DNA of 64,000 bases from Lophium mytilinum (Eukaryota), in NCBI GenBank assembly GCA_010093605.1, contig MU004182.1, positions 1,769,032 to 1,833,031 on the forward strand, given 5' to 3'. The notes under the pieces were generated by a model. The model was given only the letters and a program-made list of their open reading frames with translations. It did not search any database and had not been told where the DNA came from. The translations under genes and the position numbers were made by a program. Below are positions 6,656 through 57,247 of this stretch, piece by piece (position 1 is the first letter of the stretch; every line of letters starts with the position of its first letter).

Positions 6656-6736
6656 ACATCATCTACAAACTTCTAAACAACATCTCCAAACCTCTAAACA
6701 ACATCTCCAAACCTCTGAATAAACATCTCCAAACTC
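6656..6736 (+). repeat. ~21-bp tandem repeat (AAACAACATCTCCAAACCTCT), 3-4 copies, in the GST leader
   Basis: Two identical copies flanked by degenerate copies just upstream of ATG 6762. Confidence 0.8.
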
Positions 6737-6761
6737 AGAAACAACTCCCCAAGCCCCCAAA

Positions 6762-20482: not shown

Positions 20483-22063
20483 CTACTTTCTCTTAACCGC
20501 TTTGCCATTGCCGTTTGTATGTTCGTGTCCGTGCTCATGGTCATGATCATGGCTGTGATCGTGTTCGTGATCGTGGTCGTGGTTGTCCTCCGGGCTCGAC
20601 TGAGCACTGATATCCGGCCCGATGAACTCGTCCATGAAGTCTTGCGCATCGTCTTTCGTGACGAAGCGAACTCTGACCCTCTTCACGCCGCGCACTTTGG
20701 CGCCTAGTCGTTCCCGAACCAATTGCTCCACACCTTGTGTCTGCTGGACTGTCCAACTTGCGGGCACTGCTACTATAAGATCCATGAGGTAGTTCTGGCC
20801 GGCCTTCACGCCTTGCACAGAGCGGAGCTCGACGTTATTGGAAGCTGAGCCGATGTTCAAGGTGTCTAATGCCTTTGTAGCTGCCTTGGTGACATTTTCT
20901 CGCATTTCGTCGTCGATGCCGACATCAGATAGCTCGAAGAAAGCGGCCTTGGTGTTACCCCAGCCTGCTTGTATAACCATAAGGGAGATGACCAGACCGC
21001 CGACTGGGTCTAGCCAAGACGCGTTGTTCAGGACATTCGAACCGGCAATGAGGAGGAGGGCAACGAATGCAGTGAGAGAGTCGACGCGGTGATGGTATGC
21101 GTTGGAGGCGAGGACGGAGGACTTTCGCTCTTTGGCGACCTTGAGGGCTGAAAGGAGGTGTTAGCACGGTCTGAAATGAAGGCACTGAACATTCTTACTC
21201 GCACGATATAGCCACTCCTTGATCAGAATCGAACCACCTGCTAGCCATGCGGCGTTGATGTTCGGTCCTAGGTCTGAATGGCTATGACTGTGTCCGTGAT
21301 GATCATGCCCTATCAGCCCCCAATGGGCAGCCTCATGCGCGATCTCGGGGAAGAACTGTTGGAGGAGGGCAACGATCGCGGCTTTGCCCATCAGCACTCC
21401 TCCTAAGAGCAGCAATCCGCTCACGCCTATAGACCCCAAGCTCTCAAACTTGCCGTATCCGCTAGGGAAGCGCTTCGAGGGCGGTTTCAGGGACAGCGAG
21501 ACAGTAGCCAGCGTCATGACATCGCTGACCATATCGGTGAGACTGTGGATGGCGTCCGCAGACAGTGCTGTTGGTATTTAGCTCTGCCCTGAAGTCGCGA
21601 GTATGTGGCCATATTCACCTTGGCTGTTGAAGACGTAGCCTCCGACTCCTTTGCTTATAGCCATCCCGAGGTTGACATAGAGCCCGATCCGCGTTATCCG
21701 CACGCCGGGGTCATTTTTGTTCTTGGAAACCAGATAGGTATTGTCGTGCGCATGGTGGTGGTGGCCGGCGTGGCCGCGAGACTGGGTTGTAGAGGTCATC
21801 GCGGAAGGGGAAATGTGTCGCATGCGATGGGCCGTCGAGGACCAATTGAGGAGCGTTGTTGGGTCTGTTGTGAGGCGGTGTTGGCCTTTTGTAGAGGTCC
21901 TGAGGACTCGAAGCTGCAGTGCGTGGAGGGACGGGGGGTGTGTCGCGGCGCAGGCGTGTGCTGGTGAAGGCAGTGAACGGGGCCCGTAATATAGCTGGCG
22001 GCCAGAAACCACGCGTCCGAAATGGCTGAAGAGGTGCACGCCATTGCTGTTGCGCAGTGACAT
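20483..22063 (-). CDS. Mitochondrial cation diffusion facilitator (Mmt1/Mmt2-like)
   Basis: Presequence-like N-terminus, GHAGHHHH, RITRIGLYVN, ADAIHSLTD, GYGKFESLG, NAYHHRVD, His-rich tail. Two introns. Start codon uncertain. Confidence 0.9.
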
Positions 22064-44664: not shown

Positions 44665-45667
44665 GTGGCTGCGACTTGCTTCTTCACCACCCTCTACATG
44701 TGTTTCTTTTGCGAGGGAATCTTACCGTTGGCTCTGGTGCTATGGCTGTAGCGAGACTCATTGTTGCGGGTTGGCCCATGTCATTGGCCTTGGGAGCATT
44801 GTTTCTTAGGGATGTTCGATTACTATTTAGATAAATTGGTCTCTCGGAATTTGTCTCCTAGTACTCTACTATTCGATAACAAAGGGGTACTTACAATGTC
44901 GGATGCCTTGGCGATGCTCATGAGGCCCCTTGGTCGCACCTGGCTTCAGGTGATCAAAGCTATATCCCCAGCTCAGCATCCCTGTTGTAAGAAATTTTAG
45001 GGGCATAGGGGGCAGCTTCTAGAGTGAGTGAGCTTGGTCGACGATGTGCACCGTCAATGGACAACGAATCTACAGATTTGCACGTGAATCTAATCTCTGT
45101 AGTACGCCCCTTCATCATGACGAGCGAAGTGATGCTGGGTCGTGTAAACCTGCCGTCTCGGGAAGCAAGGATTGCGGGTGCCCAAAACTCCGATGACGTG
45201 GTGAACTGTACAACTTTAATTCTCCCTGCACAACTACGTCGCCCGCGAAGATTCTGATATTGACGGCGGCCTACCTCTTACTCAAGTAGCACAGTCGTAG
45301 TTACATGCAGTCGCAGCTAAAAGACGCGGTTTTTGTAGAAGAAAACGCGTTGACGTAGTTGCGGCAGAGCAAGCAGGGGAGTTCCCGTGTTGATTTCACT
45401 TTTGGTGCGGGCACAGGCAACCATTCGCTGGTAATTCACCGCTTGGACCTTCTGACGCCGACGTATTCAAAAGCACTTGCCAGCCTCCTCTCGACTACAT
45501 CATCCACGGCTTGCACACCACACCAACCACCGTCATCTACCACCACCTCCAGCCTTTGCTTCTGCAATATTTTGGTTCGGTCCACCTTCTATCATTGCCT
45601 GTCTTGGATCATTCCCGCGCCGCTCTAGAATTTTCTAGACTCCTTTTTGGCTACTGAGCACGACACC

Positions 45668-48600
45668 ATGGCTCGAATCCGGAGCCACCACCAGGGCCCT
45701 GGTGACCCTCCTCCTCGAAGCAGTGGGCGGAAGCGCCGCGCCTCTTCTCTGGCCTCAACGCAAACATCCACAAGATCTGTCGAGGCCTCCCGTGGAGCTA
45801 CCAACGAAGGGCGTTCCGCCTCTCCAGACACCGACAATGAGGCTCACACAAGCCCGAAGAAGCGAATCAAGCGTGCTGTGGTGGACGACCAAGATCAACT
45901 CACGCAGGAGTTGCAAGATGCTGTCAATCATACACAGGACTCTATCGAGTCCCCAACCCGAGACAACGTCCAAGTTGTCATCAACGCAGAGCCCCAAAAG
46001 CGGACTCGCTTCTCAGAGCCGCCACCGGTGACTGAAGTTGAGACTACGACGCCTGACGATACACCACCCCGCCCTGCAAGCCAAGCACCGACGGGCCTCA
46101 CTCCCCATCTCGAGCGAATCGGTGCCTTCCAACCATCAAAGTCTGGTCGCCACGCCCGGTTCTCCTTACCGGCTACATTGGATAGTGGAGAGGTTGGAGC
46201 GGCGAATGGTTCTAGCGAAGTGCGCGAGATCCAATTCACCCCACTGCGAGCTGTCCTCGACACGCGTATGAAGCGTCGTCTTCGGCGTAGCCACCTCAGC
46301 GAAGAGGTGAATGACATCGAGGCGCACAACAAGGACGACGCGAAGGACAAGAAAGAGTTAAGGGAACTTCGCCGCCTGGTCAAGGAGAAGGATGAGAAGG
46401 AGAAGCAATTGATGCTGGACCTGGAATTGCAGCGCCAGATGGGGATTCACATACATGATGACGAAAAGATTACGGAGCTGGAAGCAGAGCTTAACGATGT
46501 CAGGCTTGAGCTGACCGAGCTCAAGGCCCAGAGCATCTTCTCTGGTAGCGAGCGAGCGGCCAGCGAAGACCGCACCTCGGAATTTGGCATGGACCACGCC
46601 GTCGATTTCAATGATGAGGACCCACCTGAGTTCGTGGATCCCGACGATATCAACGTGTCGCAGGAAGATATGCGGCCAGTGCCCCACGCCAATGGGTTCT
46701 ACTCTTCTCAGTCCTCCTTCTCGCTATCTCGGATCACGAATTCACAATCCTTATCAGAGCAAGCTTCCCAAGTTAAGCTTCCGAACCCTGCCCATGAGGC
46801 AGATCTTCGCAACTTCGAGGAAGCTCTGGGAAATTTGAGACGAGAGTTAGCCGACACTCGAAGCAAATTGGAAATATTCAACCTCGAGCTCCAAGGTCTT
46901 GGGTTTGCCAACGACCATGAGGCCTCGGATATCATCCTGGAATCGATCCGTACCTCCTTCCGCGAGGCTCGGCTTCAACTTGAGGTCTTGCTTCCAGGAC
47001 AAACTCCCGCGGATCTTCAGAACGGCGCTTTGCTCCAAGCTCTAACCGACCATATTTATGGCTTGATGGGTGAGCTTAAGGTGAAGACTGAGCTAGCCGA
47101 AAACCACAATCAGATAGAACGAGTACTGCAGATGCAGAACAGTGGTCTACTGAACAAGCTCGCGGATTTCCAAGCACAGAATGAAACTTTGCAAAAAGAA
47201 AAGGTGGACTTGACTACCCAAAACGCGAAGAATGTTTCCGAACTCGAAGATGAGCTCCAAACCGCACACTCTACATTGAATCTCCGCGAGAAGACCGTTT
47301 CCGATCAAGAAATAAAGATCAACGGTCTTGAAGATGAAGTGGAAGACATGAGCATTGACAAGCAGCGTCTTCAGGACGCGTGGAATGCCTCTCGTGATGA
47401 GGTCTCAAAGCTTGAGGCTCTTGTCCTCAGCACGCAACAACGCTATGAGCAGGCAATGGAGCAGATGCAATTGGAACATGCCAACACTGTCGAGGAGCTA
47501 GAGTCTCGGCTCGCGGATGAGACGACAGCTCGCGAGGAGGCAGACAAGGAGATAGATCAGAAGAGGCTATTCATCGACAGCCTGGAGAAGAAGATAACTT
47601 CTGCAGAGGCGCACTTGGAAAACTTTCACGACGAGGTCACGCGTGTGCAACTCTCATCTGACGAAGAGAAGGCGGGCCGCGAGGCTGCTGAGACTCTTGT
47701 TGCTCAGCAGACTACTTTCATCAACACCCTTCAAGAGAAGTTCGAGCGGGCGCAAGAATCGCTAGAGCAGCTCCAATCGGAACTTGAGCAACTTCGCACG
47801 CTCGCTGAGGCCGAGCACAACCAGCGTGAGGCCGCTGAACAAGATCTCGATGGCCGCAACACTCGTATCTCGGAGCTCGAGACCAAGCTTCGTGATGAGG
47901 GCATCCAGGCCAACGAACTTCGCCAGAAGCTTTTCATAAATCAGAAGACGACGGAAGAGCGCATTTCTGAATTAGAGGAGGACAAAAAGGTACGGGACGA
48001 GTACTACAAAGATGTGATGAACACGGAGAGTGATCGAGCCAACGAAGCGGAGAATGAATCCGCTAAACGCAACGTCCTCATTGCCGAGTTAGAGCTCCAG
48101 ATCGCGAAAAAGGACGAGGCCGCTGAGCTTATGAAGACGGAATACGATGACTTGCTCAACGCTCGGGACGAAACGATTGAGCGCCTCACAGAGAACCTCA
48201 AGGAGCTCAACGATGATTACACGACGTTGACGGGGACTACTGACCTCACAATCGCCACCTTACAACTCGAAATCAACGGGTTGCAAGATATCATCGCGGA
48301 GCGTGACAGCACTATTGCCATCTTGCGCGATGAAGCCATTCTCACGACAACGCAAAATCAGAACATCATCGCGCAGCAGGATGCCGAGATTAGCACCCTG
48401 ACCACCGACCTCGACACGGCGCGCATGGAAATCGACCAGTTGACCCAAGAGAAGGCATCCCTCGAGAAACGCGTCGAGGACACAGCCAACGACCTCATCC
48501 GCATCAAGAACGCCCATACCACCGAGGTTGAAGGTCTTGATACGACCATCAGCTCCCTCCACGCGAAGATCACCAACCTCACCACCATGCACCAGCAGCG

Positions 48601-49078
48601 CGCTGACGAGTTCGAGACTACCTTGCAGGAGAAGACGGCTGAGCTCGAGGCCCTGCACTTGGTCGCAGAGGGACGTGCTGTCGATATCACGAAGCTGGTG
48701 GCTCAAGTGGAGGAGCTCAAGGAAGCGTTCCGCAAGCAGCAGGAGGACAGCGAGGAGACGATCAAGGCGCTGCAAGAGGGCATGCGCGCGGCGGTGCAGC
48801 AGGCTGAGACGATGTCTGCAGCATACGGCGATCGTGCTGGCGAGGCGCGGAAGGTCGTTGATGCTTTCAAGTTTGAGGGCGTCAAGGTGACGGGCGCGAA
48901 GCTGGACCTGCAGCGCGTCATTGAGGGACGGGTGGGCAAGGTCAAGGAGAAGGTCCGCGTGTCGAAGAAGGGGCGCAAGGGCAGGCGGGTCTTCGATTCG
49001 GGGATTGGGGTCGAAGACGATGACGAAGCGGAAGCCGTTAGCGGAGCTGCGAATGTAGAGGCTCTGAACGGGTACTAG
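45668..49078 (+). CDS. Large acidic coiled-coil protein
   Basis: ~1136-aa intronless ORF with an S/T-P-rich disordered N-terminus, long E/Q/L/K heptad-rich body and basic C-terminal patch. Confidence 0.85.
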   Translation: MARIRSHHQGPGDPPPRSSGRKRRASSLASTQTSTRSVEASRGATNEGRSASPDTDNEAHTSPKKRIKRAVVDDQDQLTQELQDAVNHTQDSIESPTRDNVQVVINAEPQKRTRFSEPPPVTEVETTTPDDTPPRPASQAPTGLTPHLERIGAFQPSKSGRHARFSLPATLDSGEVGAANGSSEVREIQFTPLRAVLDTRMKRRLRRSHLSEEVNDIEAHNKDDAKDKKELRELRRLVKEKDEKEKQLMLDLELQRQMGIHIHDDEKITELEAELNDVRLELTELKAQSIFSGSERAASEDRTSEFGMDHAVDFNDEDPPEFVDPDDINVSQEDMRPVPHANGFYSSQSSFSLSRITNSQSLSEQASQVKLPNPAHEADLRNFEEALGNLRRELADTRSKLEIFNLELQGLGFANDHEASDIILESIRTSFREARLQLEVLLPGQTPADLQNGALLQALTDHIYGLMGELKVKTELAENHNQIERVLQMQNSGLLNKLADFQAQNETLQKEKVDLTTQNAKNVSELEDELQTAHSTLNLREKTVSDQEIKINGLEDEVEDMSIDKQRLQDAWNASRDEVSKLEALVLSTQQRYEQAMEQMQLEHANTVEELESRLADETTAREEADKEIDQKRLFIDSLEKKITSAEAHLENFHDEVTRVQLSSDEEKAGREAAETLVAQQTTFINTLQEKFERAQESLEQLQSELEQLRTLAEAEHNQREAAEQDLDGRNTRISELETKLRDEGIQANELRQKLFINQKTTEERISELEEDKKVRDEYYKDVMNTESDRANEAENESAKRNVLIAELELQIAKKDEAAELMKTEYDDLLNARDETIERLTENLKELNDDYTTLTGTTDLTIATLQLEINGLQDIIAERDSTIAILRDEAILTTTQNQNIIAQQDAEISTLTTDLDTARMEIDQLTQEKASLEKRVEDTANDLIRIKNAHTTEVEGLDTTISSLHAKITNLTTMHQQRADEFETTLQEKTAELEALHLVAEGRAVDITKLVAQVEELKEAFRKQQEDSEETIKALQEGMRAAVQQAETMSAAYGDRAGEARKVVDAFKFEGVKVTGAKLDLQRVIEGRVGKVKEKVRVSKKGRKGRRVFDSGIGVEDDDEAEAVSGAANVEALNGY

Positions 49079-50189
49079 TAGGTGTGTGTGTGTGTGGTTC
49101 CTGTTGGCTTCAATTTGACGGTACGTCGACTGGATGGATGGCTTGCTGGCTACGAAAGGTATGCTTTGGCTATACGTAGTGGGACTTGGTTGCGGTGGTG
49201 CGATGATGTTCCGACGATTACGACGATGTCTGCTCACAAAGGAGGTTCTGATCTTCTTTTGCGGGTTGTCGTTTTGATACGTTAATGTGCGCGGTATCGA
49301 GTCAGCGGCATTGTTGGGCGCGGCATCAGCGGTAATCTGGGATGCTTCCATTCATTTTCCTTAGGGTAATTCGTAACGATAGCGGGATTGGGAAAATTGA
49401 TTACTCTGTGTTCATTTGGCTTGGTGGTTTCTGTGAGTGTGATGAAGTAATCGTGGTGACACGTGAGGAAGCTGGTTATTTTTGCAGGTGAGATCTAGAA
49501 TTGTGGGTATGAGAACATTGGCGGTCGAGTGGTTCCAGGGTGATTACGCACCCTTAGCGTCCTTGGTAATTGACTTCCTTCTGATACTCGTTCCTCAACG
49601 CTGAAACCCAGGTCGCTGCTCTGAACATACAAAGATCTCGGTGGTACCTCTAACCCGCCCAAATCGGCCCCTTCCATCGCAAATACTTCCCAATCGAACC
49701 GCATCCCACATTCCCCCTTCGAGACGCAGCGTGCTCAACGCCTCCAACCTCTCAGCGCAATCCATTGTAACTATGTCCAATCTGACCGCGAATATACGTT
49801 CTTCTACCCACGCCGTAGCCTAGACGTCTCGCACGCTTCTGTCGCTTGCGTCTCTTATTGGTACACGCGGCGTGTTACGACGCGTATGCAGCGTGTGGTC
49901 GCAATGGTGCACTAGATACGGCGGGACTAATGTGCGATCTTGCCCGACAGCAAGCCCAATGCGGGCGACGAGGTGCTGGCCTGCTCGTTCGAGTTTTCGG
50001 CTGTTTTGTTGCATGTAGTTTCCGATCTAACCGTAGGGATGGGGTTTGGTGGAGGTGGCGTGCTATTATAGCGGACACGACTTGTAGATATGATAAAGCT
50101 TAGAGGGGCTAGATGTAGTAGCAAGCTGCTAAAATTGTTATCGCGGCAGGATGGAGGGTCGCTTCTGAGATAGAGTAGGTAGATTTGTG

Positions 50190-50900
50190 AGAGTGAATTA
50201 CGGATTGGACGGTGGTGAGGGCCCTTTTTGGTAAATGCTGGGTGCCGCTCGGCGTCAACGATATTTGGGTACGAGAGGGGGGGTTTATGGGAGTTTTAGG
50301 GCAAGTACTCACGAGTCGAACCGTTGAAATAGCGGTTTTTTAATATGTCGGGTACCACGCGGCGTCGACGATGTGCGAGTACGATAGAGGTCCTATCGGG
50401 GAGTCTTAGTGCAAGTTCTTACGAGTTGAACTGTAGGGCCTGGTTTTAGCGCAGCTGCTGTGTACCACGCTACGTTAACTTTTTGTGAGTACAAGGAGGG
50501 TTGTTCTAGGGACTTCTCTTATAAGTACTCACGAATCGAACCGTTGAAACAGCATTTTTGTTAGACGCAGGTTACCACGCTGCGTCAACCACCCGTGAAG
50601 TACAAGGAGGGCCGCTCTTGGGAGTCTCAATGCAAGTACTCACCAATCGAACCGTGGAGATGCCTTTTCTTATTATACGCCGTGTACTATACTGCCTCGA
50701 TAACGTCTGCAAAGAACAAGGCCCGTTTTGGGGGCTTTTCGTGCAAGTACTCACGAATCGAACCGTCGAAACAGTGTTTTTTATTAGACGCGAAGTGCCA
50801 CGCTGCGTCAAATAATATGGGAGCACACAGAGGGTCGATTGAGAGACTTTTTGTGGAAGTACTCACGAATTGAACCGTAGAAATAGTATTTTCAGACACT
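50190..50900 (-). repeat. Tandem array of ~110-bp units with Pol III B-box/A-box-like motifs (tRNA-like)
   Basis: Core GCAAGTACTCACGAATCGAACCGT at 50301, 50411, 50521, 50632, 50743 and 50855, plus a degenerate unit at ~50190. Period 110-112 bp. Confidence 0.9.
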
Positions 50901-53057
50901 TTGTATCCTATCGCGTGGGTGGTGCATCGTTGATCTCGGAAACTTAGGTAACGCGATGGCACCTATGCGCTAGCAACTCGGCTTCGTAAGGCCGCACATG
51001 ATTATCTTAGCGGCTGCTTTGCGGCTTCTCATGACAAGGTAACAGTCACTGTTCTAGCTCAGGGATACCGCGTCAAGGCTTGGGGATCCACCGTCTTCGA
51101 TAAAGCCATGTGACGTGATTCTTCATCAGGTAAGCCCGGTCTTGAGACATCAAGATCCATCTACCTGAAGACTCCACTTAAATAGCTTGCTAAGGACGTA
51201 GGCCCTGCGCGTGCATGAATAAGAGGCCCTAAGCAACCTTTGAGAGCGGTGAATCGAAAAGCAGAAAAGAAACATGGTGGGATATCTCGAAGCGTGGCTT
51301 GGTTCATGTGGAGGGACTCCTCATTGCAGAGGTACTTGAACTCCAGCACGCCATAGGTAATTGCTGAATAAGAAGTTGAGAGGAAACTACACGTGAACTT
51401 TCTGAGCTCCACAAGAGCCACGCATTTCAAGATAAAGAATGAGGAAGGGGAAAGTTGGAATTCGGGGGAAGATATGAAGAGACCAGGCACCAGAGTTGTG
51501 CAATCCTGAATAAGAGAAAAGGACCCCGTATGAAAGTAAATTAGCAGATCAGAGAGGTAAATAGCATGTAGCAAGTCCCACAGACTACAAGGATATCGAA
51601 TATCCTGAAGTAGTGTTTGAAAGTGCCTCCGGGAAAGCATAACCGAATTTCAGCTTACAGAATTACCGGACAGATCTCTCCTACGCTTTGCGGAATCTAA
51701 GCTCATGCTTTTATGCCTACTTTACCAAGCATCATCAACCCATGATATCATGACCTACTCATGTAAGTTTTTAGCTGATGAGCTGGCCAAAGTGGATCCA
51801 GCTCCTGTAGGAGCTGGTATGTTTCCCCACGTATAGTATGTACGAGGAATGCTCGGGCATAATATGACATTGAGGTTGGGGATCGACGGTGTCACATGAT
51901 TGCAGATCGAGCCCTGCATTTGCGTACTCGGCTGTAGACGAAGGATCTCCAGCCTCAGCCTCATGCCAACCATGTGCAGAATAGTGAGACACTCGAGGCC
52001 GCTGCCCCTCAATAGCGGTGAGACCTACCGTGAGATTTGGGAACGTTCTTGTACCCAACGCGAGGGGCTATTGCTGCAGCAGCGGCGTGTGCATATACGA
52101 TAGGCGGTGGTGGCATGCAGGGCAACGGTCTAGATGCTAGTCCGTGGTGGGCATAGGACGGCATTGACGAGAAGTGTGACACGGACTTCCGATGCTGGGC
52201 GGAATGAAGTAAGTCGCGGAGGGCGATGATGCGGGATTGCAGCAGCGACGGGGTTGGTGATGGTGTTGACTGGTGCGCAGACGGTGAGTGGTGAAAGGCG
52301 AGCCGGGACGTGCAGCGCTAGAGCAGTCGGCTACTCACCGCCCAAGGAAGAGGCGCTTCGCGTGCATCGGCGCTGGCCAGAGAGGGAAAGTGGGGTGGCA
52401 CGCTGGATCTGATATGTGCACGACCTTTGGTGTTGCAAAGATTTGGGCGATCACTGACCGCGAATCCTATGGCGCCGGATTTGCGATACTGCCGTCGACA
52501 GCCGTGCGGATTGTCAACTGGCGCTATGTTCGGACGAGTATGCAGCTACCTCGGTCACGGCATTGTGATACGAAGTCGTCCATGAGAAGTGGTTCGCGTA
52601 GATGCTGTGGCCGGTGAATATGCGTAGAAGGTGAATTTTACCGAGTGAGCCACACCATCTGCTGAAGGTGCATTGAGGGTTCTCGCAGGAAAACTCAACC
52701 ATGGATGTGCCAATTGATCCGTAGTCGGAAGTGTTGGATCAGTGTGGTCTGATAGGGTACTGGGGGTGTTTGATCGCCTTTTGCCAGCGAGACTCACGCC
52801 AGTCGATGTCATTGCGCAGCACACGGTGGTCCCATAGCAAATAGTATGCTGGGGATGAGCGCGAGGCGGGACCCTTCAGAGGTGTGCGGATAGACAGCCA
52901 TAGCGCCCGAAGGGTCCAGTGGGCGAGGGCGTGAGGCCGCGATAGCCGCATGAGTCGACACCAAGGTCATGCGGGGCACAATGACGAGAATGGCGGGGCA
53001 GACGGTCACGGTGGGAGACTCGTCGGGGACAGTGCCCAGACCGCAGTTCCGTCTGGC

Positions 53058-53101
53058 GGGTCGAGTTGGAGGGTCGAGTTGGAGGGTCGAGTTGGAGGGT
53101 C
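53058..53101. repeat. 13-bp perfect tandem repeat (GGGTCGAGTTGGA) x3.4
   Basis: Directly visible in the sequence. Confidence 0.9.
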
Positions 53102-54724
53102 AGACGTCTGAGCATGTTATACTGAGCATCGCGCGCCACGGCCGTGCAGAAAGAGTGAATGGAAACCCTGACAGCACGGGGTCCCCCGGCAAGCGCGCTT
53201 CAGGGTCCATGTTGCACCGCTAGACATACACACCTGACGATGGTGCCGTGCGACGTGATAAGTCAATCTGCGGATTTTCGAGGGGCGGCGGTCTGGAGAA
53301 GCTCGCAGACATGGTACTCGGCTCCATCTTTGACCACCGCAGGAGGCAGCTTAAGCTCGACCACGGATGCAGAGGGTGGGTTTCGGGCATGGAGGGGCGT
53401 CAAGACAAGCCCTTGGGCTCGAGGCCGGCCTCGGGGAGCGATCCTTGATGGCTCGACAATCGAGCCTCCAACCCAGCCTAGCGCTCTCGCTGCCAAGGGT
53501 CTGAAGTGCAGGGACCTCGACAACGACGCCCGCATTCGGCGTGCTGAGGGCGCTGAGGGACGACTGCTGCCCTGCTCGGCGCGATCCGTGGTGTTGAGGG
53601 GCTCCGTCGCCGGCTGGCGGTGAGCACCCGGGCGGCTGGCATGCTCTCTTTTTCGCGGCTTGGTGGTGAGGAGATGGCTCCTCAGCGCGCGCGGCGAACA
53701 GGGAGGGCGGAGAGGCTGCAATCGCATGCGCCCAGCTGCAGGCCTAGTGTTCTTGCGCCGGGGGTGGTGGTGTGCTCTGCTGGCCTGATTGGCCCTTGTG
53801 ACCTGGACGTCTATCACAACGAGGCGGCCTTTTGCCTCTCTCCCGCGCTCATTCGGCTGCGCAGAGGGTCTGCAATCTTGCCTGCGCGTGTCCTCCTAGT
53901 CCTCCTTGCCTCGTCGACCGATCGTGGAGTTGCTGTTGATTCTCGTCGAGTCCCGAGTCCCATCAAGTCGAGTTTTTGCCGTGTTGTTTGGAGCGAGTGC
54001 CCCGCCAGATCCCGCCGCAGAACATCTAATTTCGCACCCGTAGTCTCCACCGCGCCTACGCATCCAAGACGGGCCTTAGGACGCCGCCGCTATCTCTCTC
54101 CATCGTGCCGTGTGTCTGCCCTCGCCTTGCCTCTCACATCGTCCGGCCTGCGCGTGCCCGGCCTGGCCTGTATTTTGCCTTGTGGGTTTGCTGAGATAGC
54201 ACTGAGGCGCGCTGCAGCAGCTTGCATTGCTCGAACCCTCAAACCCCCCCCCCCAATTGGCCCTCCTCTTTGGCAGAATTTCGCTTGGCTTGCTTCGTTT
54301 CTTGCGACTGGCGCCAGTCGGCCGACACTCCCTGCGTCTCTCTGCATATCATCTCGGCCTCCGCCTCGATCGCTTCACTCCCGGGACCCCCTCGGGCTCT
54401 GTCGCAGACTCACGCTGTACCTCCTTCACCACCCGGCGCCTGCGAGCATCTTCTCGCGCCGTCGCAGAGACGAGCCATCAGTGTCGTTCTCGTCCTTGTT
54501 CGTGCCTTCCCCGCACTTGGCCTTTGACACTTCTGACTGACATTTGCGTGGCAGTGTCGTGTTCTGCTGTCATTCTTCCCACGATCCTTTCAAAGAGCAC
54601 CGTCCCCCTCTTCCTCTTCCTCTCCGGCGACGTCTCCGATTCCTTCTTTCATTTCTCCCCGAACATAATACCCCTCCGGCACGCGAACGCCCTACATGTA
54701 CTCGCGACCAGCGATATTTGAACT

Positions 54725-57247
54725 ATGGACACAGAGGATGGGCAGATATTCATAAAGGTGGGACCACATCGAGAGCCGCGCTCTTTGGCGCTTCAACGAT
54801 ACCTTTCTGTGCCCTCAGTATGTGGCTTGATCAGAACTAATCGTCCACAGAATCTGGCCTACTTTGTACGAACTCACGAAAAAGCACTCGCCAACGCCCT
54901 CCAACTGCAGCGCCAGTCTCCTAAAAATGCAGCCCCCTCGGGTGGAGGCCCCGCCTCCCCGACGCCGAACCCACCCTCCAACTCTGCCTCTACCTTCGCG
55001 GCTGCTCTCTCCCTTCCCTACCTCACTTTTACCTCGCAAACGATAAAGCCCGCAAAGCTGACCCTGACCCCGCACCACCTCTTCTACCTCCTCTCCCGCT
55101 TCGAGGAGCTATCGATTCCTGTGGGACCAATGAATATTAGGCTGGAAAACATACACTCCGAGTCAACAAACTATGTCTCGTTCTTGAGCAAGGCACAGAG
55201 GAACAAAAGCAGGGCTTCCGATCGTGACTCGATGCACTCCGTGTCTAGCATACGCAGTGTAATGTCAGGCATGTCTTCGTTGTGGTCTACACTGGGCCTC
55301 GCTTCCAACAGTGCAGCCAAGGCAGAAAAGCAGAAGGCTGCTATCCAAGAGGACTTGAAATACCTCTATTCTGCCTTTACCAAGATTCCGTGTCTACGCC
55401 TTGCGCCTGACCACAAGGCCCGCCTCATCGCAGGCTACGAGGAGTTCCCCTTTGATAGTGCCGTGCCTCTTTTTGCGTTCAAGAACCTGAGTGCCCTCGA
55501 GATCTACGACGTAGACTTCCGCCAATTTTATGGTTGGGATCGACTAGCTGAGCAACTACGGAGCCTCACTGTCAAAAGAGCTGGAGTGGACGACCCGGCC
55601 GATTTGCTGATAAACGTTGTCCTAGACGATATGGACAAACGGAGAAAGAGGTCTGCGAAGGCGCCACCGTCACCCGTCACGCCATGGACTGCGGCTAATC
55701 CTGCTACCAAAAATGTTGACATTGCAAGGTCGCAGACGCCACCGGCATCGCCAGGCGACAGACTGGGACCAAACAGCCCCCAAAGCGTTCCCATGGCGAG
55801 GAGTGGCTCTAGTGAATCCAAGTCCACACCCCGCGCTAGGCAACGGAGTGCATCACCTACGCGACCTCACAGTTCCAGGCATGGTTCGACCAATGTGTAT
55901 GGCAGAGGTAGTATGGGAAATATCCGACGTTCATCCGGAAGCTCAGGATCTAGCGTTCAGTCGGCGACTCCTCGCAATAGCACATCTAATCTGCTGTCCA
56001 CCGCGTGGTTCCCGTCAACCAAGTGGAGATTTTTGAGGCATCTGAGTCTTGCTGACAATGCCTTGACCAACATCTCAACGGCAAGTCTGGCTCCACTGGC
56101 CAACACTTTGCAGTCTTTTGATCTTTCAGCAAACCTCTTCACAGAGATTCCCGACAGTCTGGCTTCATTGACGTCTCTCCGTGCGCTGAATCTTTCGAAC
56201 TGCATGATTGAGTCGCTGCACTCGCTGGGAAGGAGTCCGTTGCCGGCTATAACTACCCTGAACCTCCGTTCCAACCGTCTGGTCTCGCTTGCCGGCGTAG
56301 AGCGGCTGCTGTCTTTGGAGCGTGTTGACTTGCGTGATAACAAGCTAACAGATCCAACCGAAGTTGCTCGTCTGACAGGCATTCCGGAAATACAGGAGAT
56401 CTACGTCAGTCGCAACCCGTTCTGCAAAACACACAGCAACTACCGTGTTACAATCTTCAACCTGTTCCGAAAAACGCCTGGATTTTCTGAAGATATTGTC
56501 ATTGACACCACCGGGCCAGGCTACAGCGAGCGCAAGCAGCTAGTCGATAGGGCGCCGGAACGTCCCAATGTTCCTGTTATGAAAACACCTCCAGAGGACG
56601 ACGTGCGTCCACCTCCACCTCCGCCCAAGCCGCGCCCAGTCTTTGCGGATGTTCCCGGACAGGGGAATATCGAATCCCAGACTCAACCGGCGAGATCACA
56701 CCACCGTTCGAGAAGTGATTATGGGACAGGGGGAACGGGATCGCAAAGACGGCGCAAACCAAAGCGGCGGATAGTAGAGCTGTCGCAAAGCGAGCACGCA
56801 AAGTCTGCAGCTTTACCACCTCTCCCGCCGCCGCCCCACTTCAGCGAACCGCCGCCATCTGACGATGTATACACCAGCCCGGTCAAGCCGCAGCTCCATA
56901 CAGCACAAACAGTATCTGGCGCTTTAACCACCATACACACCCACCCTGATCAAGGGCAACTTCCTCTCATAAACACCACCCTAGCCACCCATCCTAAAGA
57001 CTCGGCAGTGGAGTTTGGTTCGGACTCGACGGTGGACTTTGACGTTAGCAGCGACCTTTACAAAAAGAAAATTGAAGCCTTGCGGCAGGACTTTGGAAGC
57101 ACCTGGCTTACGGCACTTGGGGACGAGTCGTGGGATTCTCAAACCGTGGGAAGCTTTCCCGAGCCGGGCTTCTCTCCTTCGCTCAAGCCGTCTCTGACCC
57201 GTACGCCCAGTCAAGGCATAGTGTCAGGAGGACGAACGCTCGGCTGA
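54725..57247 (+). CDS. Fungal leucine-rich-repeat protein
   Basis: FVRTHEKALANAL, LTPHHLFYLL, LRRs (LRHLSLADNAL, LRALNLSNCMI, LNLRSNRL, VDLRDNKL). Intron 54758-54850. Confidence 0.9.
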   Translation: MDTEDGQIFIKVGPHREPRSLALQRYLSVPSVCGLIRTNRPQNLAYFVRTHEKALANALQLQRQSPKNAAPSGGGPASPTPNPPSNSASTFAAALSLPYLTFTSQTIKPAKLTLTPHHLFYLLSRFEELSIPVGPMNIRLENIHSESTNYVSFLSKAQRNKSRASDRDSMHSVSSIRSVMSGMSSLWSTLGLASNSAAKAEKQKAAIQEDLKYLYSAFTKIPCLRLAPDHKARLIAGYEEFPFDSAVPLFAFKNLSALEIYDVDFRQFYGWDRLAEQLRSLTVKRAGVDDPADLLINVVLDDMDKRRKRSAKAPPSPVTPWTAANPATKNVDIARSQTPPASPGDRLGPNSPQSVPMARSGSSESKSTPRARQRSASPTRPHSSRHGSTNVYGRGSMGNIRRSSGSSGSSVQSATPRNSTSNLLSTAWFPSTKWRFLRHLSLADNALTNISTASLAPLANTLQSFDLSANLFTEIPDSLASLTSLRALNLSNCMIESLHSLGRSPLPAITTLNLRSNRLVSLAGVERLLSLERVDLRDNKLTDPTEVARLTGIPEIQEIYVSRNPFCKTHSNYRVTIFNLFRKTPGFSEDIVIDTTGPGYSERKQLVDRAPERPNVPVMKTPPEDDVRPPPPPPKPRPVFADVPGQGNIESQTQPARSHHRSRSDYGTGGTGSQRRRKPKRRIVELSQSEHAKSAALPPLPPPPHFSEPPPSDDVYTSPVKPQLHTAQTVSGALTTIHTHPDQGQLPLINTTLATHPKDSAVEFGSDSTVDFDVSSDLYKKKIEALRQDFGSTWLTALGDESWDSQTVGSFPEPGFSPSLKPSLTRTPSQGIVSGGRTLG

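Follow-up and report, generated by a model that had tools for sequence, protein, structure and literature searches.

The stretch of DNA considered here (the window) comprises 64,000 nucleotides of the Lophium mytilinum contig MU004182.1 (assembly GCA_010093605.1, positions 1,769,032 to 1,833,031). It contains a tandem array of six strongly diverged units of about 110 bp, each of which has kept the same short core on its minus strand, and the first half of this core resembles the B box that is bound by TFIIIC. We tentatively regard the array as a protein-binding DNA repeat for which TFIIIC is the leading candidate binder, the putative sites being extended B boxes of the type found in the extra-TFIIIC (ETC) and inverted-repeat (IR) elements of yeasts. 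The original prediction had described tRNA-like cassettes of RNA polymerase III (Pol III) and offered three readings, namely genes for tRNA-like small RNAs, the tandemised head of a tRNA-derived short interspersed nuclear element (SINE), and a clustered TFIIIC boundary element. In our view the last of these is the leading single candidate of the three, judged from the sequence. We think that the array works as DNA and not as a set of small-RNA genes.

The six units lie head to tail. Their core anchors are at 50307, 50417, 50527, 50638, 50749 and 50861, and the period runs 110, 110, 110, 111, 111, 112. As one unit repeated head to tail at a single locus, the array has the form of a minisatellite. 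The six clear units of about 110 bp that had been claimed for it are real, since the anchors are regular and a profile hidden Markov model (HMM) built from the six units recovers each one (E 2.4e-26 to 3.5e-29). A repeat search gave one family of 75 nt (5 copies, 68-76% to the reference) and another of 134 nt (3 copies, 65-70%), and a 22-nt core with at most 3 mismatches occurs 5 times against 0.00 expected. Divergence among the units is strong (pairwise identity 0.56-0.68 in a MAFFT alignment); Tandem Repeats Finder (TRF), run at a minimum score of 30, reported 34 rows in the window and none within 50190-50900. The array and the core of each unit are as follows.

50232..50896, minus strand (on which the B-box-like words read): the six diverged units in tandem, recognised by repeat families, unit alignment and profile
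50302..50322, minus strand: core of u1 (unit 50232-50342), GGTTCGACTCG with the extension TGAGTACTTG
50412..50432, minus strand: core of u2 (unit 50342-50452), the most eroded, AGTTCAACTCG with TAAGAACTTG
50522..50542, minus strand: core of u3 (unit 50452-50562), GGTTCGATTCG with TGAGTACTTA
50633..50653, minus strand: core of u4 (unit 50563-50673), GGTTCGATTGG with TGAGTACTTG; it lacks the last C of GWTCRANNC
50744..50764, minus strand: core of u5 (unit 50674-50784), GGTTCGATTCG with TGAGTACTTG
50856..50876, minus strand: core of u6 (unit 50786-50896), GGTTCAATTCG with TGAGTACTTC; the upstream A-like block is absent

Decay of the units has been uneven, as had been proposed. When the aligned units are scored column by column, mean pairwise identity reaches 0.88 in the best stretch of 20 columns, compared with 0.62 for the unit, and this peak is matched by 2 of 20,000 column shuffles (mean shuffle maximum 0.74). 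It corresponds to plus-strand AAGTACTCACGAATCGAACC, which is half B-box-like word and half other sequence. Read on the minus strand, the core of 21 nt begins with a B-like 11-mer and continues into a 3' extension of 10 nt, TGAGTACTTG, and the conserved stretch spans about 21-28 nt in all, more than the B-like word alone. Minority cells number 4/60 in the extension and 14/60 in the 10-nt 5' flank. By majority fraction, AAGTACTCAC scores 0.97 and the B-like 11-mer 0.91, compared with 0.77 for the unit. The earlier statement that conservation is concentrated on promoter-like motifs can therefore be kept only in part: the peak, though significant, is B box for only half of its length, the ten adjoining columns (0.97) are kept at least as well as the box itself (0.91), and the A-like block described below is kept only moderately (0.85). 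The combined word TTCRANTCGTGAGTACTT, allowing up to 3 mismatches, is found in all six units and nowhere else in the window (0.23 expected). Other blocks kept in each unit are a GGAGGG-like one and a plus-strand run of T4-6 at the unit end, and the variable parts have abundant slippage-prone runs of G and T.

The six units are about equidistant from one another, and their differences comprise 51 transitions and 30 transversions. There is no excess of C>T/G>A among these differences and hence no sign of repeat-induced point mutation (RIP), and the alignment of the six units gives no sign of recent homogenisation. Because the units are equidistant and the substitutions ordinary, the core seems to have been retained unit by unit and not copied recently. 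The history is most simply read as a burst of duplication long ago, after which the units decayed independently but each kept its core, and we infer that this retention reflects the binding of a protein.

The minus-strand words quoted in the original prediction (GGTTCGACTCG, AGTTCAACTCG, GGTTCGATTCG, GGTTCGATTGG, GGTTCGATTCG and GGTTCAATTCG) are exact, and GTTCRA is indeed kept in 6/6 units. Published consensus sequences for the B box are GGTTCGANTCC (PMC3395662) and, in minimal form, GWTCRANNC (PMC4228148), and mutation of the internal C abolishes TFIIIC binding (PMC3395662). This C is present in all six units and GWTCRANNC is matched by five of them, always on the minus strand; judged by GGTTCGANTCC or by GWTCRANNC with its internal C, the array has the B box of a Pol III type-2 unit. 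Where the B-like word varies, it does so mostly at positions that the published consensus leaves degenerate. The fixed positions of GGTTCGANTCC hold 1/36 minority cells, the degenerate or weak positions 5/30, and at the rate of the whole unit a count of at most 1 of 36 would have a probability of 0.0011. A stricter form, GGTTCRANTC, occurs 5 times in the window compared with 1.21 expected, a count that 2/100 shuffles reach; the sole occurrence outside the array, at 21226, has no such extension. It is the constancy of the fixed positions, the variation at the degenerate ones and the 3' extension that together make the core a candidate of TFIIIC type, and the independent retention of the core in each unit (shuffle peak, equidistance) lends support to this assignment.

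An A-box-like block had been placed about 45 nt upstream of most of the B boxes, which proved correct: the block or a variant of it is found 45-46 nt upstream of 5/6 B-like words, the outermost unit u6 having none. The best-kept copy is the following.

50575..50587, minus strand: A-like block TGACGCAGCGTGG, majority fraction 0.85 over the copies

Its sister copies begin (minus strand) at 50810, 50477, 50367, 50257 and 50699, the last of which is eroded; the partner of u1 is that starting at 50367. Two units have the block unchanged, two have it with 2-3 changes, and in one it is badly eroded. Within a short palindrome, GACGCAG..CTGCGTC, the block provides one arm and the loop. As an A box it is only putative, and it differs at the third position from the A-box consensus given in the original prediction. 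The spacing of 45-46 nt falls within the 32-93 bp permitted between A and B boxes in yeast (PMC12409998).

The array is situated in a 5.6-kb gap between an open reading frame (ORF) for a 1149-aa coiled-coil protein, which ends at 49078, and a leucine-rich repeat (LRR) gene, whose ORF starts at 54722. Its position is thus intergenic, as for sites of the ETC or chromosome-organising clamp (COC) type, and no Pfam domain was found among the 14 gap ORFs tested. For an F-box/Cyclin_D1_bind protein encoded in the flank, the nearest Atlas clusters are in Ascomycota. Three runs were compared with the window: a DNA assembly resembling the source (X1), an RNA-like assembly identical to the window (X3) and a related species (X4). 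X3 was treated as RNA-like because it contains three joints with GT..AG or CT..AC ends; the contigs reveal neither the strand nor the level of a transcript, nor where it starts or ends, and X3 may contain carried-over DNA. Neither a transcript start nor silence is read from the parts that X3 leaves uncovered (50238-50312 and about 53321-53621). X4 aligns only to the flanking genes, and its uncovered part (49408-53600) is not taken as absence from the related species. Two features of X3 touch the array.

49495..49551, minus strand: 57-nt intron of a minus-strand transcript, X3 joint 49494/49552 (CT..AC on the plus strand)
50313..53087, no strand assigned: jointless contig of the RNA-like assembly, spanning u2-u6

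The contig with the minus-strand splice joint extends to the array's lower edge at 50237. The spliced transcript (49040-50237) is convergent with the coiled-coil gene and looks unannotated. It is probably a long non-coding RNA, because there are several upstream ATGs and the only spliced ORF, of about 121 aa, lacks a homologue or Pfam domain; the peptide of exon 2 gave no homologue in a near-length search and no Pfam domain. The X4 contigs have 1-nt indels within exon 2.

The array is an old minisatellite at one locus, in a gene gap of an ascomycete. Its units have drifted through ordinary point mutation to about 60% identity, yet each has kept the 21-nt core (a strict B-box-like word with its 10-nt 3' extension), and most have also kept the A-like palindrome 45-46 nt upstream. 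If TFIIIC is the binder, what remains would be a phased cluster of TFIIIC-type sites, that is, extended B boxes of the ETC/COC kind, occupied by TFIIIC without productive Pol III transcription. Such a cluster may act as a boundary or roadblock, or as a promoter organiser, beside the 5' part of the spliced minus-strand transcript, which would be a product of RNA polymerase II (Pol II). TFIIIC-bound sites can halt neighbouring Pol II transcripts (PMC4228148).

Elements of this kind have been described in several organisms. The ETC sites of Saccharomyces cerevisiae are intergenic and bind TFIIIC without Pol III (PMC3395662, PMC12409998). Like the array, they are described as having a B-box-like word with a conserved 3' extension of about 10 nt (alike in length and side; the yeast consensus is 23 bp), no tRNA body and no expected Pol III product. 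They differ in being single sites, eight per genome, with no A box, whereas the array has six phased copies and an A-like palindrome. In Schizosaccharomyces pombe, the IR boundaries contain multiple untranscribed B boxes and bind TFIIIC without Pol III (PMC3395662); IR and COC elements share with the array the clustering of several B boxes in a short non-coding stretch, binding to the array being putative. However, the IRs are inverted repeats that flank heterochromatin, and the source text mentions no regular period for them, whereas the array is a direct tandem with a 110-bp period in a gene-dense region. The extra-TFIIIC sites of Caenorhabditis elegans have a Box-A and a Box-B and are clustered in cis; 44.6% of them lie in repeats, and 95.1% of these are CeRep3, which are putative tRNA pseudogenes (PMC6950938). 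Here too A-like and B-like words stand together on repeat units clustered in cis, and the CeRep3 sites, although their units resemble tRNA pseudogenes, are described as being without Pol III. In contrast to the single tight tandem in one gap, CeRep3 copies are dispersed, with a median spacing of 1207 bp, on heterochromatic chromosome arms. In form, the array resembles ETC, IR and extra-TFIIIC elements in its strict B-like word, the presence of a 3' extension, the lack of Pol III features and its intergenic position. What sets it apart is the regular 110-bp tandem arrangement together with the A-like palindrome. In the limited literature collection that was searched, we found no description of ETC/COC-type elements in filamentous ascomycetes.

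Several points weigh against the assignment to TFIIIC. The minimal consensus GWTCRANNC matches 44 times in the window, and it is uninformative because 42.1 matches are expected by chance. The stricter GGTTCRANTC, which 4/6 units match, was noticed post hoc, and the contrast between fixed and degenerate positions within the B-like word does not by itself reach significance (Fisher p 0.084). Unit u4 departs from the consensus at the last C. The 3' extension was compared with that of yeast ETC sites by length and side only and not by its letters, and it also resembles a fungal 5' splice site, so that the core may serve something else. The GGAGGG-like blocks and the plus-strand T4-6 runs are unexplained by TFIIIC. 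Short-tract gene conversion centred on the core could mimic retention. Since an RNA-like contig runs over 5/6 units, it is not obvious that the array blocks transcription tightly. Every functional reading is based on six paralogues from one locus in one genome.

Nearly as likely as TFIIIC, and likewise to be regarded as possible, is that the array is a repeated Pol II cis-regulatory module, that is, a promoter or upstream-activating-sequence (UAS) minisatellite of the adjacent minus-strand transcript, in which the likeness to a B box is coincidental and the core and palindrome are sites for ordinary transcription factors. The contig with the splice joint reaches the array edge at 50237, and the conserved core of about 21-28 nt holds more than the B-like word, which as GWTCRANNC is frequent by chance. 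Each unit also keeps the palindrome GACGCAG..CTGCGTC, a purine block and a poly(dA:dT) run, all of which are typical promoter features. This explanation has to contend with the rarity of GGTTCRANTC (1.21 expected per window) and with the fact that the variable positions of the word are mostly those left free by the published consensus. Furthermore, the analyses identified no known Pol II factor motif, and the contigs are unable to place a transcript start. Fungal promoter minisatellites are likewise tandem repeats of tens to about 100 bp beside a Pol II transcript (PMC3516485); they are usually young, homogeneous and variable in copy number, whereas the array is old, its units being about 60% identical, and its core has been kept selectively.

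That the array is a functionless decaying minisatellite appears unlikely. Its core would then result from uneven mutation or from short conversion tracts, seeded by the longest identical stretch, instead of from selection. The array is indeed confined to a single locus and erodes toward one side, relics being found only on the left; TRF no longer scores it, and its variable parts are rich in slippage-prone G/T runs. Relics were sought with the unit profile in two 1.2-kb flanks (2.5-kb flank search); the left side, with the claimed eroded unit, is as follows.

50122..50231, minus strand: the seventh, 'eroded' unit of the original prediction, which has only short common blocks (15-17 nt)
49999..50047, minus strand: probable relic of the core region of a unit (profile E 0.0086 in the flanks, 0.22 in the whole window)
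49674..49701, minus strand: probable relic core, reading CGGTTCGATTGGGAAGTATTTGC on the minus strand (profile E 0.027 in the flanks)
49221-49247, minus strand: probable relic (profile E 0.13 in the flanks)

The proposal of an eroded unit is borne out to the extent of these 15-17-nt blocks common with the units, but the profile finds nothing there at E<=20. The right flank of the array contains no relic by the same profile search of the flanks. Nor is there a homologous array elsewhere in the metagenome collection scanned for the core AAGTACTCACSARTYGAACCGT. The single match, at L001 3001-3022, stands alone in unrelated, densely coding DNA without an array and was rejected as chance; it shows the chance rate of a core-like pattern in a very large collection. 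Mere decay is hard to reconcile with a conservation peak that only 2/20,000 column shuffles attain, and with the probable relic at 49674-49701, which retains the core though the rest of its unit is gone. Conversion would be expected to leave an effect between neighbours, and the units are equidistant without one; the longest shared stretch is 22 nt. This is short for gene conversion.

It is more doubtful still that the units act as RNA, as modules within a long non-coding transcript, for example as words that resemble a 5' splice site or bind U1, or as protein-binding hairpins on the plus strand. The jointless RNA-like contig 50313-53087 includes u2-u6, and the neighbouring spliced transcript is without a conserved ORF (no homologue, no Pfam domain). 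A word of this splice-site or U1-binding type, GTGAGTAC, is present on the minus strand of 5/6 units, and the extension resembles a 5' splice site. On the plus strand, two of the six units have better folds than their shuffles (z -2.55 and -2.29). The array has no shared structure, however. The consensus energies from RNAalifold are -5.73 kcal/mol (plus) and -5.51 kcal/mol (minus), with compensatory changes in 2/15 and 1/13 pairs, respectively. Single units in order give z values of -0.73, +1.21, -2.55, -0.73, -0.46 and -2.29 on the plus strand (mean -0.9) and of -1.20, +0.98, -0.34, -0.61, -0.69 and -0.04 on the minus strand (mean -0.3), and the predicted folds differ between units. No joint is seen in the array, though contigs drop rare forms, and the RNA covering it has no assignable strand and may include DNA carried over into X3. 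An intron within the units was also considered, given the core that resembles a 5' splice site and a branch-point-like word in some units, and was rejected, as no consistent AG acceptor was found by eye and no joint was found.

Improbable on present evidence is the central claim of the original prediction, that each unit is a tRNA-like Pol III type-2 cassette making small RNAs with variable internal segments from the minus strand. As in tRNA genes, the B-like and A-like words stand on one strand in the correct order, 45-46 nt apart, and tandem type-2 units that make small RNAs exist, for example the microRNA cluster of bovine leukaemia virus (BLV) (PMC12498455). Unlike tRNA genes, the array has no cloverleaf, no match to a tRNA model and no terminator on the same strand. 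ARAGORN found 0 tRNA genes and Rfam 0 matches at the gathering threshold in the window. The Rfam search for tRNA that had been proposed was made, and at E<=10 it returned no tRNA, 5S or other Pol III family in 45000-56000 or on the array alone. Weak matches within the array (sR43, 14.8 bits against 45; MNV_3UTR; DUF805b) are far below gathering and were discarded. None of the six minus-strand units folds better than shuffles at z<=-2, and the pairing of a T-stem or acceptor cannot be drawn. Runs of T>=4 within 50190-50900 number 12 on the plus strand, one at each unit end, and 0 on the minus strand, where no unit has a T-run of its own downstream; the first minus-strand T4 is at 50134, outside the array. 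With neither a tRNA body nor a terminator, the units have only the word order of a type-2 promoter, and minus-strand small RNAs are not supported by a tRNA model, a shared fold or a T>=4 terminator.

A variant, equally improbable, is that each unit is a functional type-2 promoter module for Pol III, made up of the A-like hairpin and the extended B box but lacking a terminator. Pol III would then pass through successive units on the minus strand until it met the T4 at 50134. Processing of such a transcript might, with the same low probability, free small RNAs of about 110 nt that are unrelated to tRNA and have a common core and variable segments. If true, this would be a new class of fungal Pol III polycistron.

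A cluster of C/D-box small nucleolar RNAs (snoRNAs) was rejected as well: there is no TGATGA on either strand of the array, and within 49100-54700 this motif occurs only at 49440, 51776, 51737 and 51128. Separately, two weak C/D-box-like pairs (TGATGA ... CTGA) were observed on the minus strand at 51737-51650 (88 nt) and 51128-51059 (70 nt). Their terminal stems are of 5 and 3 bp, they are without Rfam support, and they fall within the stretch of the low-depth RNA-like contig.

Least probable of all, and very unlikely, is that the array is a mobile-element remnant, either the tandemised head of a tRNA-derived SINE, as had been suggested, or the subterminal repeats of a DNA transposon, a match to which had been named as grounds for refutation. 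A filamentous ascomycete does have tRNA-related SINEs with target-site duplications (AfuSINE2; PMC5063351), and these, like the array on this reading, would be ascomycete repeats bearing a Pol III promoter; SINEs of this type are dispersed, with target-site duplications and a recognisable tRNA head, whereas no such head or dispersed copies were seen for the array. At a likeness of at least 80%, a threshold that copies of about 60% identity would escape, the contigs of the DNA assembly that match 47000-56000 number 4 and all derive from this locus. There is thus no close second copy, and neither the unit profile nor the extended motif finds a further copy in the window. The SINE head is thus unsupported by any tRNA-related sequence or second copy within these searches, which did not extend to target-site duplications around the array. 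One 23-nt inverted repeat (49948-49970 / 53524-53546, 87% complementary, 3.5 kb apart) does bracket the region. Its flanking bases do not match as a target-site duplication, and the gap ORFs contain neither a transposase nor a Pfam domain, so that the combination of terminal inverted repeats, target-site duplication and transposase that would mark the ends of a DNA transposon is not found here by these tests.

Should TFIIIC bind the array, the locus would be a natural six-fold phased array of extended B boxes in a filamentous ascomycete, and its diverged units would serve as six paralogous replicates, revealing which positions of the extended site are needed. Beside a spliced non-coding transcript, it would also be a compact test bed for the boundary and roadblock roles that have been proposed in yeasts. 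If another factor binds, the array would be a clean example of a minisatellite core kept amid decay. If nothing binds, it would be an ordinary dying repeat and a caution on the use of short consensus motifs, GWTCRANNC being found 44 times in the window by chance.

A coding role of the array was also rejected. Open frames of 96-102 aa cross u3-u5 because the period there, 111, is a multiple of 3 (37 codons); the periods of 110 and 112 break the frame, and there is no Pfam match. These frames (50525-50873) run on both strands and are read as non-coding. At the 5' end of the LRR gene, GT..AG introns are seen at 54498-54554 (joint 54497/54555) and 54756-54848 (joint 54755/54849); the X3 contig of this gene begins by 53645, and the second intron is also seen in X4. 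A 13-nt tandem repeat, TGGAGGGTCGAGT, is located at 53054-53101 (3.7 copies, 97% matches) in a stretch of 58-63% G+C, and the contigs of the DNA-like and RNA-like runs both break there. A 21-nt tandem repeat, ACAACATCTCCAAACCTCTAA, occupies 6656-6752 (3.7 copies, 89% matches).

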